The position numbers and the translations under genes were made by a program. Positions 3,138-30,602 of a DNA stretch of 32,000 nucleotides are shown in pieces. Source of the stretch: Acaryochloris thomasi RCC1774 (GTDB lineage: Bacteria > Cyanobacteriota > Cyanobacteriia > Thermosynechococcales > Thermosynechococcaceae); the NCBI RefSeq assembly GCF_003231495.1, contig NZ_PQWO01000025.1, positions 22,320 through 54,319 on the forward strand, in the 5' to 3' direction. The notes under the pieces are model-generated. The model had not been told where the DNA came from. It did no database searches and saw only the letters and a program-made list of their open reading frames with translations. Position 1 is the first letter of the stretch, and the number at the start of each line of letters is the position of its first letter.

Positions 3138-3164
3138 CTTCACAAGTTCCTCAAGTTATCGGTT
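3138..3164 (+). promoter_or_regulatory. recurrent intergenic box, copy A (upstream of the N-ATPase operon)
   Basis: CTTCACAAGTTCCTCAAGTTATCGGTT. The core TCACAAGTTCCTCAA is identical to copy C. It ends 77 nt before ATG 3231. Confidence 0.4.
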
Positions 3165-3230
3165 TATAAATCCTAAGTAGAGATTTCTCGGATAAAGCCC
3201 TGCGATTTGCTCTCTAGGTGCGGCAATTCA

Positions 3231-4664
3231 ATGATCCAAACTCAATTTGTATCGAAGGAGGGGAGGCCATTGGTTCCTTCCCAAGGCCAGGTGATTGCGA
3301 TCCGAGGCAGCGTCGTTGATGTTTATTTTCAGGACTCCTTACCTGAACTCTGCAATCTATTGCGTACAGGAACTCAACATCAGATTGCGATTGAAGTCGT
3401 CACCTATCTCAGCGCCAACGTGATCCGAGGCATCGCCCTCACGCCCACCCAAGGTCTGGCAAGAGGAGCGCAGGTCACCGACACCGGGCAACCCCTACAG
3501 GTGCCCGTGGGCGAACATCTCTTAGGTCGAGTCTTTAACGTGTTTGGTGAACCGATTGATGGCAACGGTCCTGTAAAGGGGGAGCGGCGATCGCTCCATG
3601 CCAGCCCCATTCCCCTCGACCAGCGGGCCACGGGCACCGACATTTTAGTGACAGGGATTAAAGCCATTGATCTTTTGGCTCCCCTAGAGCGAGGCAGCAA
3701 AGCCGGACTGTTTGGTGGTGCTGGAGTGGGGAAAACGGTTTTGATCACCGAAATGATCCACAACATCGTCAGCCGGTACAACGGTGTCAGTATTTTCTGC
3801 GGCGTTGGCGAACGCTCCCGAGAAGGGGAAGAACTCTACCGAGAGATGAAGGCGGCTGGGGTGATCGACAATACCGTGATGGTCTTCGGTCAAATGAACG
3901 AGCCGCCAGGTTCGCGCTTTCGCGTGGGTCACGCAGCCCTAACCATGGCCGAGTATTTTCGTGACCAGGCTCATCAAGATGTCTTGCTCATGATTGACAA
4001 CATCTTCCGTTTTATCCAAGCAGGCTCAGAGGTCTCTGGCTTGATGGGACAGTTGCCTTCTCGCGTTGGATATCAGCCCACACTGGCAACAGAGTTAGCT
4101 GAGCTAGAGGAGCGAATTTGCAGCACAGTTCGGGGAGCGATCACTTCCGTACAGGCTGTCTATGTACCTGCCGATGATCTCACCGATCCGGCGGCTGTCC
4201 ATACCTTTTCTCATCTATCAGCTTCGATTGTCCTCTCTCGTAGACGCACGAGTGAGGGGCTTTACCCTGCCGTAGATCCGCTACAGTCAGGGTCCAAAAT
4301 GTTGACGCCCACTGTTGTAGGGCAGCGCCATTATCAAGTGGCCCAAGCCGTCCGCAAGAACCTAGCTGACTACGAAGACCTCAAAGACATTATCGCCATG
4401 CTGGGTCTAGAGGAATTGGCCCAGAACGAACGCCAAACCGTTTATCGTGCTCGTCGATTAGAGCGATTTCTGACCCAACCTTTTTTCACCACGGAACAAT
4501 TTACGGGTATACCGGGCAAGCTTGTGAGTCTTGACGAGACTCTAGAAGGCTGTGAGGCGATCTTGAGTGATGAGTTTTCAGAGTTACCAGAGCAGGCGTT
4601 GTACATGATTGGCACGGTTGGTGAGGTGAGACAACGTGGTGAGGTAGCGAGATGGAGGAGGTAG
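3231..4664 (+). CDS. atpD: N-type F-ATPase beta subunit
   Basis: Walker A GGAGVGKT and typical beta motifs ([22 protein letters not shown]). It is the first gene of the operon, which is the N-ATPase order. The track start at 3207 is TTG; I prefer the in-frame ATG at 3231. Confidence 0.93.
3587..3594. repeat. HIP1 octamer GCGATCGC
   Basis: Perfect match read directly. Confidence 0.95.
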
Positions 4665-4733
4665 CGAGTTATGAGTTTTGAAGGATGAGTTTCGAGTTAG
4701 GACTATCTTCATCTCTGAAATTTTTGTGAAATC

Positions 4734-5111
4734 ATGCAAATCCAGATCTTTCTGCCGAATGAAATTTTGATTGACCAGTCTGTGAGTAAAGTCACGGCAG
4801 AGGCTGAGCATGGCACATTTTGTCTGTTGCCGCACCACATTGATTGTTTAGCAATTCTGGTTCCTGGCATTGTGACGCTGGTTGCTGACCAGGGCGAGGA
4901 AACCTTTGTCGCAGTAGATGAAGGGATTTTAGTGAAGTCTGGATCAGAGGTTCGGATCTCGACTCGCAATGCAGCGCAGGGGACAGAGTTAAATTGCTTG
5001 AAACAGCAGGTTGAGCAACAGTTCCGTGCAATCGATGAACAAGAACGATTAACCCGGTCTGCCCTCGCTCAGTTAGAAGCAAGTTTGGCACGTTACTTTA
5101 CTGCGCTGTAG
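4734..5111 (+). CDS. atpC: N-type F-ATPase epsilon subunit
   Basis: 125 aa. The N-terminal beta-sandwich pattern (VTAEAEHGTFCLLPHH...LVPG...VDEGILVK) is typical of epsilon. Positioned directly after beta. Confidence 0.85.
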   Translation: MQIQIFLPNEILIDQSVSKVTAEAEHGTFCLLPHHIDCLAILVPGIVTLVADQGEETFVAVDEGILVKSGSEVRISTRNAAQGTELNCLKQQVEQQFRAIDEQERLTRSALAQLEASLARYFTAL

Positions 5112-5123
5112 GGAGTGGCATTG

Positions 5124-5435
5124 ATGGGCAAACCACAACACCCAGAGGATTTGAATCCAACTAGAAAGGATGCGTTTCAAAGACAGGTCGAGGGTAAGGT
5201 TGACCGCAAAATCAAAGCGCGTCAACAGAAGAAGAGCGTCTGGTTTGGGTTAGGGATGTTTGGGTTAGTGGGGTGGTCGGTGGCGATTCCAACGCTGCTG
5301 GGCATTGCGCTGGGTGTGTGGCTCGACAGGCATATTTCTAGTCGCTATTCCTGGACTCTGATGATGTTGGTGATTGGGATGGGTTTAGGCTGCTTCAATG
5401 CCTGGTACTGGATCAGCAAGGAGAGCGGTCGATGA
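5124..5435 (+). CDS. atpQ: AtpQ (ATPase_gene1/AtpZ-like small membrane protein of N-ATPase operons)
   Basis: Basic N-terminus followed by two TM helices (WFGLGMFGLVGWSVAIPTLLGIALGVWLD; WTLMMLVIGMGLGCFNAWYWI). Third position in the operon. Possible starts are GTG 5115, TTG 5121 and ATG 5124; ATG 5124 follows GGGAG. Confidence 0.75.
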   Translation: MGKPQHPEDLNPTRKDAFQRQVEGKVDRKIKARQQKKSVWFGLGMFGLVGWSVAIPTLLGIALGVWLDRHISSRYSWTLMMLVIGMGLGCFNAWYWISKESGR

Positions 5436-29371: not shown

Positions 29372-29755
29372 ATGCCTAAAACAGTTTTAGTTTGCCAGAA
29401 CACGACCTGTTACCAGCAAGGCTCTGCGAACGTGCTGACTGAGTTTCTATCCGGCGCTCCGTCTGGCATTACAGTGGAGTCTTCTGGTTGCTTGGGGCAG
29501 TGTGGGAGTGGTCCGATGGTACTCATTTTGCCGGAAGAGACATGGTATAGCCACGTCCAGCCCCGTGACGCGGCTGTGATTGCGGAGCAGCACCTCAACG
29601 CAGGACGGATCGTCACTAAAAAGCTGTATCCACTTTTTCATCCTCCGCGCAGGCCCATTGGAATGTGGCTAGCCGCTGGCAGTTTCTTGCTAGGTTTTTC
29701 TCTCTTACTGATTTGGATGCTAACGACTCATGCTGCTCTGCTGTCTAGGAATTAG
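29372..29755 (+). CDS. thioredoxin-like [2Fe-2S] ferredoxin domain protein with a C-terminal transmembrane anchor
   Basis: VLVCQNTTCYQQG (C-x4-C) and SGCLGQCGSGPMV (C-x3-C) give the same ligand pattern as NuoE/HoxE. The C-terminal hydrophobic helix is IGMWLAAGSFLLGFSLLLIWML. I use ATG 29372; the track start is TTG 29369. Confidence 0.8.
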   Translation: MPKTVLVCQNTTCYQQGSANVLTEFLSGAPSGITVESSGCLGQCGSGPMVLILPEETWYSHVQPRDAAVIAEQHLNAGRIVTKKLYPLFHPPRRPIGMWLAAGSFLLGFSLLLIWMLTTHAALLSRN

Positions 29756-29810
29756 GAGCTTAGGTTAGTCAATTTGATTTCAGCACCCTCTAATTATTTT
29801 GGGATTAGTT

Positions 29811-30257
29811 ATGCCACAACAACATCCGTTTTATTTGCTTTGGTCTGGCGCGATTAACTTGGGAGATACGCCTGGTGTGTTCAACAACGCACAATTTGCG
29901 GGCCTTCTAGTACAGATTCCAGTCACGCTATCTTTCATACCAGAGAATGATTTACCCGTTCGCTTTCTGCTGAAAACGTCTGACGTTGAAATATTCAATG
30001 ACAAAAAGCATCCCGTCTTTTGGGATTGGGAGCCGGGTACAGCGCTGCCCTCACCCGTTGGTTACGTTGATGATACGGATTTGATTCCAGAGCAGCCTGA
30101 ATTTCATGAGTTGTCTGTCCCGCATTCGGCTGCAGCCGTTGGTCCCCATACAATCACCCTTCAGGTCAATTCCGAGGTTTCAGCAGGTTTACGGGATGAT
30201 TTTGTGCTTGAGTGCATTGAGGCCCACGAAACCATCGGAGCAAAAATCGGATGGTAG
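29811..30257 (+). CDS. hypothetical protein (148 aa)
   Basis: Long ORF. ATG 29811 is preferred over the TTG at 29799. No recognisable motif. Confidence 0.55.
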   Translation: MPQQHPFYLLWSGAINLGDTPGVFNNAQFAGLLVQIPVTLSFIPENDLPVRFLLKTSDVEIFNDKKHPVFWDWEPGTALPSPVGYVDDTDLIPEQPEFHELSVPHSAAAVGPHTITLQVNSEVSAGLRDDFVLECIEAHETIGAKIGW

Positions 30258-30313
30258 AGGGTGCTCAATCAAATGTTTAAACAGAACGATGGGACTGGTT
30301 TAGGAACATAACC

Positions 30314-30571
30314 ATGGTGCAGCTTCCCGCAACAGCATATCCACCACATCGTCTCAGCCTCGATCTTGGGGTGATTATTTTTACTCGACTGGTCAGCCAT
30401 ACCTACGATCTGTCGTTAGAGAGTCGTGAGGGTCAATGCCAATTCATTGGACGCATTGAAGAGAGAAGCAACGACCTTTGGGCGGTTACTTTTATCGACT
30501 GCCAAGCCTGTATTCCTGAATATTTTGATGACTGGCAGCAAGCGACCTTATTTTTATCCCGAGTCTTATAG
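30314..30571 (+). CDS. hypothetical protein (85 aa)
   Basis: ORF with an ATG start, same strand as its neighbours. No recognisable motif. The overlapping ORF 30426-30635 is rejected. Confidence 0.45.
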   Translation: MVQLPATAYPPHRLSLDLGVIIFTRLVSHTYDLSLESREGQCQFIGRIEERSNDLWAVTFIDCQACIPEYFDDWQQATLFLSRVL

Positions 30572-30583
30572 AGTGAGGGTTTC

Positions 30584-30602
30584 AAGGCTCACAACATCCT
30601 CA
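30584..30602 (+). promoter_or_regulatory. recurrent intergenic box, copy E (upstream of the 58-aa ORF)
   Basis: AAGGCTCACAACATCCTCA, identical to copy D. It ends 104 nt before ATG 30706. Confidence 0.4.

Follow-up and report, generated by a model that had tools for sequence, protein, structure and literature searches.

Introduction

What does a short sequence box do when it recurs ahead of operon-leading genes in a single stretch of cyanobacterial DNA, which protein would read it, and which signal would reach it? The question is raised by 32,000 nucleotides (nt) from Acaryochloris thomasi RCC1774 (contig NZ_PQWO01000025.1, positions 22,320 to 54,319 of the forward strand; this whole stretch is hereafter the window), in which an earlier note had listed seven copies of such a box upstream of, among others, an N-ATPase operon, a ppsA-usp-hoxEF cluster and the gene for a hybrid response regulator. 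The note proposed either a shared promoter or operator or a shared 5′-leader element.

Each night, or when they live in mats and sediments, cyanobacteria change over to fermentation, produce hydrogen and employ a low-oxygen form of photosystem II; the known regulation of this switch is thin. In a 2026 review on redox regulators of cyanobacteria, ChlR is the sole oxygen-sensing transcription factor listed; the review ascribes the control of hox and nifJ to nucleoid proteins and SigE, and names no regulator for the low-oxygen induction of psbA. In this work we characterize the box, its distribution, the genes that follow it and the proteins that may act on it. The comparison of sequences makes it probable that the box is the activator site of an anoxia regulon, set in a class II promoter and served by the hybrid regulator together with a kinase of predicted haem-PAS type.

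Sequence sampling and searches

Loci around ppsA were sampled from cyanobacterial genomes, one genome per species, yielding 80 loci, of which the one with the closest ppsA, 90% identical, belongs to a Thermosynechococcaceae metagenome-assembled genome (MAG). Sampled cyanobacterial loci carry L-numbers (L001, L049 and so on). The 47 sites found with a strict search pattern, from which the −10 region was excluded, were aligned. A metagenome scan with TCCTCAYAANTTYCTCAA-N10-TA retrieved at least 120 further contigs which, joined with the ppsA loci, amount to 2.1 Mb of cyanobacterial DNA. Genes downstream of boxes were grouped into BLAST clusters annotated with Pfam, and transcription start sites (TSS) were predicted from the −10 hexamer alone. 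As a control for circularity, eight further loci were picked by the regulator protein alone, four from assemblies and four from plasmids.

Architecture of the box

All seven copies listed in the earlier note (A to F and a weaker one at 1029-1048) were recovered with the sequences and coordinates it gave, as were the 15-nt core TCACAAGTTCCTCAA common to copies A and C and the 19 nt common to D and E. The pattern CACARNWTCCWCA has six exact matches in the window, all on the plus strand, and allowing at most one mismatch yields eight matches against 1.27 expected, a number reached in none of 100 shuffles. Scored with a 34-nt weight matrix, eight window sites attain 16 bits or more, whereas a Markov-shuffled window would be expected to hold 0.005 (Table 1). 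One of them is a new, eighth copy on the minus strand (12493-12526, CCTTCATAAAGTCCTCAGATGATCAGCCTACAGT), divergent from copy B. The copy at 1029-1048, which had been called weak, is genuine: the box also precedes homologues of the 139-aa protein encoded behind it at three foreign sites (L049, L106 and L152). Maximal open reading frames (ORFs) make up 93% of the window, and every site lies within the roughly 7% outside the chosen ORFs, in agreement with the intergenic placement originally described; of the eight intergenic gaps that measure 100 nt or more, six contain the box. In every window copy a TA stands exactly 12 nt past the box and opens a TAnnnT or TATAAA hexamer.

The alignment of 47 sites gives the consensus T-C-C-T-C-A-C-A-A-g-T-T-C-C-T-C-A-A-A-T-T-n-T-T-n-n-y-y-T-A-n-A-A-c, beyond which information content drops to zero. 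The box consists of two 11-bp direct repeats, TCCTCAc-AAgT and TCCTCAa-ATTn, each with a 7-nt core and an A/T-rich tail; a −10-like TAnnnT or TATAAc stands 10 nt beyond the repeats, the offset of the TA being identical in 45-46 of the 47 sites. The earlier note had parsed the box as a 9-nt-spaced direct repeat of CA(A/G)nTT; that parse is possible, but the exact TCCTCA hexamer recurring with an 11-nt period across species is the more meaningful one.

When the hexamer is set at −12 to −7, the 18-bp double repeat falls at −40 to −23. No −35 hexamer accompanies it: at the −35 position of the window copies only 0-3 of 6 bases agree with TTGACA. Head-to-tail repeats of 11-bp period at −40 to −23 are typical of OmpR/PhoB-family regulators, and the geometry therefore fits a binder of that family. 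The pho box of Escherichia coli, bound by PhoB, is built in the same way, with two 11-bp repeats (a 7-bp core and a 4-bp A/T-rich tail) at −40 to −23, 10 bp from the −10 and without a −35; its core, however, reads CTGTCAT where the present one reads TCCTCA, and the window sites differ from the pho box by 7-9 mismatches. We consider it highly probable that the box is an activator-dependent promoter element.

The same measurements bear on the possibility that an alternative sigma factor (of group 2, group 3 or the extracytoplasmic function class) reads all 34 nt as its promoter, with TCCTCA serving as −35 and no activator involved. Sigma-70-family promoters space their hexamers by 15-19 nt, and neither TCCTCA lies within that range of the −10, the proximal one being 11 nt and the distal one 22 nt away; the conserved block, moreover, extends over 21 nt and holds two repeats. 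The rigid spacing between box and −10 does suit a sigma factor promoter, as does the box in front of a group-2-like sigma gene in L079. In Synechocystis, according to the 2026 review, hox and nifJ are driven by SigE in microoxic conditions, but the SigE consensus is different, with a −35 of the form GNC/TNNN and a C-rich TANNNT. Taken together, these observations make a sigma factor promoter very unlikely.

The position of the −10 also decides the fate of the leader element contemplated in the earlier note, in which the box would be transcribed and act on translation or RNA stability, either as an anti-Shine-Dalgarno sequence or in the manner of a small RNA (compare Yfr1, ACUCCUCACAC). TCCTCA is complementary to the Shine-Dalgarno-like GAGGA, and the Yfr1 core resembles CTCCTCACA. 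With a conserved −10 downstream at a fixed offset, however, the box lies outside the transcript of that promoter, the predicted TSS and the start codon lie at widely differing distances from each other (median 72 nt; 10th to 90th percentiles 27-364 nt), and the flanks are not conserved. Scans of the window returned no tRNA and no Rfam family at gathering score. The leader proposal is rejected because of the downstream −10, the variable start-codon distance and the unconserved flanks, and we assign it an extremely low probability.

Conservation, placement and orientation

The box is conserved upstream of orthologous genes in other genomes, as a check before ppsA and before orthologues of other window genes in distant cyanobacteria established. 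The strict pattern occurs 100-260 nt upstream in about 25 of the 80 ppsA loci and a matrix site of at least 12 bits in about 45 of them, the box-bearing loci coming from Nostocales, Chroococcidiopsidales, Pleurocapsales, Leptolyngbyales, Acaryochloridales and others. Over the window and the 80 ppsA loci (1.35 Mb) we count 98 sites of at least 12 bits, compared with 0.5-2 in the Markov null. The metagenome contigs contribute 193 matrix sites among the matches listed, often several per contig, with eight in the 14.7 kb of L160.

According to the earlier note, an equal density of the motif inside genes and a random orientation would mark it as a plain dispersed repeat. Across all the sequence gathered (2.1 Mb), and among the matches listed, 241 of 261 strong sites (92%) avoid ORFs of 120 aa or more, even though such ORFs take up 78% of the DNA; between tandem genes 89 sites are co-oriented with the downstream gene and 8 anti-oriented, and just 9 sites lie between convergent genes. 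A short dispersed repeat or mobile-element remnant of no regulatory role could account for the abundance of the box, for its frequent clustering, as in L160, and for its occurrence on plasmids. The intergenic and orientation bias without conserved flanks leads us to reject it, the box being kept before orthologous genes across orders and showing neither terminal repeats nor target duplications; its probability is close to nil. By this comparative evidence the box is confirmed as a real promoter element conserved across cyanobacteria.

The candidate regulator

Box B precedes the gene for a hybrid response regulator (Table 1; its start is placed here at 12672, and at 12708 in the earlier note) that combines a receiver (REC), a winged-helix domain (Trans_reg_C), a histidine phosphotransfer (Hpt) domain, two further receivers and a degenerate GGDEF domain. 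Its translation holds the acceptor aspartate in the first receiver and the histidine in the Hpt domain. Orthologues vary in length between 345 aa, with REC, winged helix and Hpt only, and about 800 aa. Members occur widely among cyanobacteria under the annotations 'response regulator' or 'multi-component transcriptional regulator', with no specific name. The best NCBIfam model for the REC and winged-helix part is PhoB, at 271 bits, below its cut-off of 296. The RppA equivalog, passed by the regulator with 256 bits against a cut-off of 250, is an artefact: two receiver stretches are added together in its score, and L211 has a genuine rppA at another place. The signature of the C-terminal GGDEF domain (14500-15056) reads SGTHF, and because of this the diguanylate cyclase domain is probably inactive.

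Three lines of evidence connect this family with the box. Of the 200 loci obtained by way of ppsA or the box, 13 hold a full-length orthologue according to a tblastn search with the winged-helix and Hpt domains as query, and a query with the winged helix alone found no other OmpR-type winged-helix gene in those 2.1 Mb, both among the matches listed; by our own estimate, fewer than one occurrence of a single-copy gene would be expected by chance in fragments of about 10 kb. Across 17 orthologues the recognition helix, EEAVRTHIKGLRQKLK, hardly varies, paralleling the near-invariant box. Finally, in six of the eight loci picked by the regulator protein alone, a box and the regulator module lie no more than about 600 nt apart. 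The box lies directly after the REC gene in the Gloeobacterales MAG (L202; 37 bits) and in Stenomitos (L204; 19.5 bits, with another of 26.4 bits about 2 kb further downstream), as box F does in the window. It immediately follows the regulator, ahead of a usp or PNPOx gene, in Chroococcidiopsis CCNUC1 (32 bits), Leptolyngbya boryana NIES-2135 (19 bits) and Nostoc C052 (37 bits), and it flanks the regulator on plasmid pREB4 of Acaryochloris marina. A box directly before the regulator gene itself is found in the window, in L194 (38 bits, 62 nt upstream) and, weakly, on pREB4 (12.9 bits), which makes autoregulation a candidate feature of the window locus.

Three of the plasmid loci have a further peculiarity. 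On Chroococcidiopsis CCNUC1 pA (L209), L. boryana NIES-2135 plasmid1 (L210) and Nostoc C052 pC052_E (L211) the regulators, of about 790 aa, reside in copper/heavy-metal resistance islands with genes for DUF305, RND efflux, multicopper oxidase, P-type ATPases, DUF2933, ICMT, DUF5676 and DUF1269 proteins.

An activator site of the same kind might instead be bound by another factor, such as RpaA, RpaB, Rre37/NrrA or the LuxR-type OrrA, with the hybrid regulator a mere member of the regulon. Among these RpaA comes nearest: it is a cyanobacterial OmpR-family protein that binds an 11-bp tandem repeat as a head-to-tail dimer and activates night or dusk metabolism, including hox, and RpaA-matrix matches in Anabaena (e.g. 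ATATCTTAATTTTTCCTTAAGTATT) share the tandem architecture and part of the half-site. The 2026 review likewise has RpaA govern night-time metabolism and hox in Synechococcus elongatus. Yet RpaA recognizes TAAA-N7-TTAA at −58 to −36 of PkaiBC, an A/T-rich site from which it contacts the C-terminal domain of the alpha subunit and sigma region 4, whereas the box is C-rich and lies one helical turn nearer to the −10, at −40 to −23, with 2-3 of 8 mismatches to the RpaA site at the window copies; none of the Anabaena RpaA-matrix matches listed, which are A/T-rich, contains TTCCTCAA or CCTCACAA. OrrA governs hundreds of salt and dehydration genes, stress genes among them, and its motif is unpublished in the OrrA literature examined, but it is not of the OmpR type that the repeats suggest. 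The scarcity of boxes directly before hybrid-regulator genes, to which we return below, also speaks for another binder; the hybrid regulator, on the other hand, is the only winged-helix family encountered in the box-rich loci.

The patterns of several further known regulators do not suit the window sites, and the earlier note was right to set the box apart from the NtcA, HLR1/RpaB and LexA consensus sequences. HLR1, (G/T)TTACA(T/A)(T/A) N2 (G/T)TTACA(T/A)(T/A), and the SphR-bound cyanobacterial Pho box, PyTTAAPyPy(T/A) three times at an 11-bp period, are, like the present box, direct-repeat sites of OmpR-type regulators; HLR1, however, has a period of 10 rather than 11 bp and shows 4-7 of 16 mismatches at window sites, and the Pho box shows 3-6 of 16 at all eight. 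NtcA (GTA-N8-TAC), ChlR (TTMCC-N3/4-GGWAA), LexA (RGTAC-N3-DGTWCB) and CRP (TGTGA-N6-TCACA) sites have at least two mismatches each, and the box lacks dyad symmetry. Overall we judge binding by a factor other than the hybrid regulator to be unlikely, while giving it more weight than any of the alternatives discussed above.

The proposal of a promoter or operator shared by an OmpR-type regulator such as the one encoded here is hence favoured by the fixed −10 phase without a −35, the orientation and intergenic position of the sites, their conservation and the co-location of the regulator. Because it is the sole winged-helix family in box-rich loci and has the box beside its module in six of the eight regulator-selected loci, the hybrid regulator is the likely binder of the box.

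The kinase and a possible oxygen signal

The regulator gene is followed by genes for a PAS-GAF-PAS-PAS histidine kinase and a single-domain receiver, and this three-gene module recurs in L201, L202 and L204 (Nostoc edaphicum, the Gloeobacterales MAG and Stenomitos). Compared with structures in the PDB, the second PAS domain of the kinase has haem-PAS oxygen sensors as the 13 best of 17 matches, among them FixL of Bradyrhizobium japonicum (4e-19), FixL of Rhizobium meliloti (4e-14) and DosP of E. coli (2e-11). The proximal histidine of FixL (H200) and its oxygen-sensing arginine (R220) align with identical residues in this domain. Kinases beside regulator orthologues in L030, L049, L151, L201 and L202 keep the haem-PAS domain and its histidine, as does one near ppsA in L067.

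The acceptor aspartate in the first receiver, the histidine in the Hpt domain and the single receiver in the module make plausible a four-step relay from the kinase histidine through the receiver aspartate and the Hpt histidine to the aspartate of the first receiver of the regulator. As to the signal that enters such a relay, we hold the chances that it is oxygen to be evenly balanced, given the FixL-like features of the kinase.

Content of the regulon

Most of the genes that follow boxes in the window do so in other genomes as well. In unrelated genomes the box precedes ppsA at 51 sites, usp genes at 20 and DUF1830 genes at four (L001, L067, L155 and L158); atpD of the N-ATPase is box-preceded also in L093, L114 and A. 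marina pREB4, and hoxE and hoxF orthologues are so in foreign loci. A DUF4278 homologue has a box in L052, and pREB4 repeats the divergent arrangement of the window (20.8 bits). Homologues of the 58-aa ORF at 30706 and the 300-aa ORF at 30961 are box-preceded in L039, L110 and L153, and the 69-aa ORF at 11781 likewise has box-preceded orthologues in unrelated genomes. For the DUF6335-hpf unit behind box D, the foreign loci yielded no box-preceded orthologue.

Other families join the regulon outside the window. Recurrent foreign members are CBS-CP12 fusions (13) and a cluster of about ten proteins that includes an Hsp20-like member. The fermentative genes comprise those for pyruvate:ferredoxin oxidoreductase (nifJ), pyruvate formate-lyase and its activase (pflB/pflA), phosphofructokinase (pfkA) and a Zn alcohol dehydrogenase, and further members are an acyl-CoA synthetase/GNAT protein, hoxU, hypA, Lon, FtsH, DJ-1/PfpI, Host_attach/baeRF12, the group-2-like sigma factor of L079 and psbA. 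Both box-preceded psbA genes encode a D1 protein with A80, L158 and A286, a combination that we take to mark the D1′ isoform induced at low oxygen. On a plasmid of Stanieria PCC 7437 the box stands before a usp-MBL-dps-usp cluster and before hsp20, and on pREB4 before hoxW-hypAB.

A small protein with the cysteine pattern CPCC...C..C (67-112 aa, no Pfam family) is also repeatedly box-preceded, often divergently from ppsA or usp (L026 7366(-), L079 9703(-), L112 1270(-), L120 335(+) and L162 5412(-)).

Judged by the families annotated behind the box, the regulon is one of fermentation, hydrogen metabolism, low-oxygen photosystem II and general stress or dormancy functions. The stress, dark or anoxia regulon suggested in the earlier note thus gains support from the fermentation and hydrogenase genes, the low-oxygen D1′ and the FixL-like haem-PAS kinase.

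A segment of pREB4 of A. marina MBIC11017 (L208, 122025-146612) is syntenic with the window over ppsA, the N-ATPase, DUF3122, DUF4278, the regulator, usp, hoxEF, the solute-binding protein and hoxU, and retains boxes at orthologous positions. Because of this synteny, the window may derive from a plasmid or a transferable hox/N-ATPase island.

Weighing the proposed mechanism

In the mechanism that we favour, the box would be the activator-binding part of a class II promoter, that is, an activator-dependent promoter without a −35. The phosphorylated OmpR/PhoB-family regulator would bind its two units as a head-to-tail dimer and, like PhoB at pho boxes, bring in RNA polymerase where a −35 would otherwise be recognized. 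Loss of oxygen would activate the kinase (15061-17604), the phosphate would travel along the relay described above to the first receiver, and the phosphorylated regulator would turn the regulon on. Its predicted members in the window are the N-ATPase and regulator operons, the IF17-like gene (see below), DUF1830, ppsA with five usp genes and hoxEF, DUF6335-hpf and the small ORFs; elsewhere it would add nifJ, pflBA, pfkA, hoxU/hyp, CBS-CP12, Hsp20 and the psbA genes for low-oxygen D1′.

Several observations weigh against parts of this mechanism. In two of the eight regulator-selected loci (Nostoc edaphicum, L201, and Leptolyngbya 7M, L203) the surrounding 10 kb contain no box, and most regulator orthologues have none directly upstream of their own gene, the window and L194, and weakly pREB4, being the only cases with one. 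In the second PAS domain, H214 and I215 of FixL are not conserved, and haem binding is predicted from sequence. The three plasmid copper-resistance islands (L209-L211) hold no haem-PAS kinase near the regulator, from which it follows that the signal may not be oxygen in every lineage, or that paralogues may exist. The general stress genes of the regulon (Usp, Hsp20 and Dps) suit salt or desiccation as well as anoxia.

Relation to known systems

The nearest functional analogues are PhoB at pho boxes for the mechanism, FixL/FixJ for the sensor and the DosR dormancy regulon for the gene content. With PhoB the present system would share, besides the site architecture, a binder of the OmpR/PhoB family, but PhoB serves a phosphate regulon where the present genes point to fermentation, hydrogenase and stress functions, and the regulator described here has a fused Hpt domain and extra receivers. 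FixL/FixJ offers a comparable kinase domain, haem-PAS-like with aligned histidine and arginine, and its targets too are low-oxygen genes. FixJ, however, is of the LuxR/NarL type, whereas the present regulator is OmpR-type (Trans_reg_C) with an Hpt domain; the additional single receiver suggests a four-step relay, and the kinase has a GAF and two more PAS domains.

In Mycobacterium tuberculosis, DosS and DosT are haem-based hypoxia-sensing kinases that act on DosR, whose regulon is rich in Usp, Hsp20/alpha-crystallin and phosphofructokinase. The parallel extends to the predicted haem-based sensor kinase and to the Usp, Hsp20 and phosphofructokinase content, to which the window regulon adds a ribosome hibernation factor. 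DosR differs in being a NarL-type protein with a palindromic site and GAF-haem rather than PAS-haem sensors, and the cis-elements have no homology. ChlR activates genes at low oxygen in cyanobacteria, as the candidate regulator would, but it is a MarR-type protein with a 4Fe-4S cluster that binds a palindrome (TTMCC-N3/4-GGWAA) and controls chlAII-ho2-hemN.

The 2026 review mentions neither a FixL-like system nor a TCCTCA motif, and reviews of psbA regulation and of CyAbrB2 and hox mention no such motif. Full-text literature searches for 12-18-nt strings of the box returned nothing relevant, and TCCTCA combined with cyanobacteria gave only primers and Yfr1. In these searches we found no prior description of the box.

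Features of the window

The gene assignments made earlier for the window are borne out by Pfam, and their coordinates are given in Table 1 with those of the boxes.

Table 1 Boxes and genes of the window (positions count from its first nucleotide; TSS, predicted transcription start site)
Feature	Coordinates	Strand	Repeats	−10 hexamer	TSS	Score (bits)	Context
Weak box	1029..1062	+	1029-1046	TAGAGT 1057-1062	~1069	16.0	Before 139-aa ORF at 1084
Box A	3137..3170	+	3137-3154	TATAAA 3165-3170	~3177	40.7	Before N-ATPase operon
Minus-strand box	12493..12526	-	12509-12526	TACAGT 12493-12498		18.8	Faces DUF4278/IF17-like gene 12477..12040
Box B	12544..12577	+	12544-12561	TATTTT 12572-12577	~12584	35.5	Before hybrid response-regulator gene
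Box F	18051..18084	+	18051-18068	TAGTCT 18079-18084	~18091	21.8	Before DUF1830 gene at 18121
Box C	19070..19103	+	19070-19087	TACAAC 19098-19103	~19110	42.4	Before ppsA-usp x5-hoxEF
Box D	27756..27789	+	27756-27773	TAGCCT 27784-27789	~27796	26.5	Before DUF6335 (27824) and hpf (28336)
Box E	30586..30619	+	30586-30603	TAACGT 30614-30619	~30626	26.5	Before 58-aa Nif11-like ORF (30706) and 300-aa ORF (30961)
N-ATPase operon atpD, C, Q, Na+/H+ exchanger, R, B, E, F, A, G	3207..11162	+					Pfam; under box A
DUF3122 and DUF4278 genes	DUF4278: 12040-12477	-					Pfam
Hybrid response regulator (REC, winged helix, Hpt, REC, REC, degenerate GGDEF)	12672..15056	+					Pfam; candidate box-binding activator
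PAS-GAF-PAS-PAS histidine kinase	15061..17604	+					Pfam; second PAS (~residues 372-477) FixL-like haem-PAS; candidate O2 sensor
Single-domain receiver, 130 aa	17597..17989	+					Pfam; third gene of the regulator-kinase-REC module; candidate relay intermediate
ppsA, five tandem usp, hoxE, hoxF	19172..26583	+					Pfam; under box C
DUF1830, DUF1816, solute-binding protein, DUF6335, hpf, Nif11-like proteins, small ORFs							Further genes called with Pfam

Some of these genes have features of their own. Over its last 65 residues the DUF4278 protein scores 98 bits against the NCBIfam equivalog for the glutamine synthetase inactivating factor IF7A, above the cut-off of 70, and because of this match the protein, which has its own box, would be an IF17-like glutamine synthetase inactivating factor that would link the shut-down of nitrogen assimilation to the regulon. 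In the N-ATPase operon a Na+/H+ exchanger gene (5432-6661) is inserted between atpQ (ATPase_gene1) and atpR, and the operon of pREB4 has its genes in an identical order with the same insert, annotated 'cation:proton antiporter'. Just 5′ of box A lies a gene of the AIR-synthase family (HypE/SelD-like; 1993-3033) whose pREB4 homologue adjoins a large PAS protein and the hoxW-hyp cluster.

Between ppsA and hoxE the five tandem usp genes occupy 21552-24377, Usp being the commonest family other than ppsA behind the box elsewhere. In the segment 24289-27658, hoxE and hoxF are followed by the gene for an amino-acid-type solute-binding protein and not by hoxU, hoxY or hoxH; pREB4 has the same interruption, together with an IS1 before hoxU. 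The 58-aa ORF at 30706-30882 clusters by BLAST with the Nif11-domain protein encoded at 29025-29315, and this, together with box-preceded homologues in L039, indicates that it is probably a real small protein.

Implications

With a defined 34-nt element, a named candidate regulator and a named candidate sensor, the low-oxygen control of cyanobacterial genes becomes directly testable. The element predicts regulon membership for families such as DUF1830, DUF6335, the DUF4278/IF17-like proteins, small ORFs and CBS-CP12, and it offers an anoxia-inducible promoter part for the engineering of hydrogen production and fermentation. The plasmid loci show, in addition, that the module is carried between replicons along with its target genes.

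A wider proposal, which we advance tentatively and regard as somewhat doubtful, is that the box, the REC-winged-helix-Hpt regulator, the receiver and the haem-PAS kinase form a master oxygen-responsive switch of cyanobacteria, an ancient phosphorelay extending from Gloeobacterales to Nostocales and borne on plasmids too. If this were true, the loss of oxygen would, through this switch, induce hydrogenase, pyruvate fermentation (nifJ, pfl, ppsA and pfk), D1′, ribosome hibernation, the Na+-ATPase and Usp, Hsp20 and CBS-CP12 proteins. The switch would then be the cyanobacterial counterpart of the mycobacterial DosR dormancy regulon and would supply the regulator hitherto missing for the induction of psbA and hox at low oxygen.

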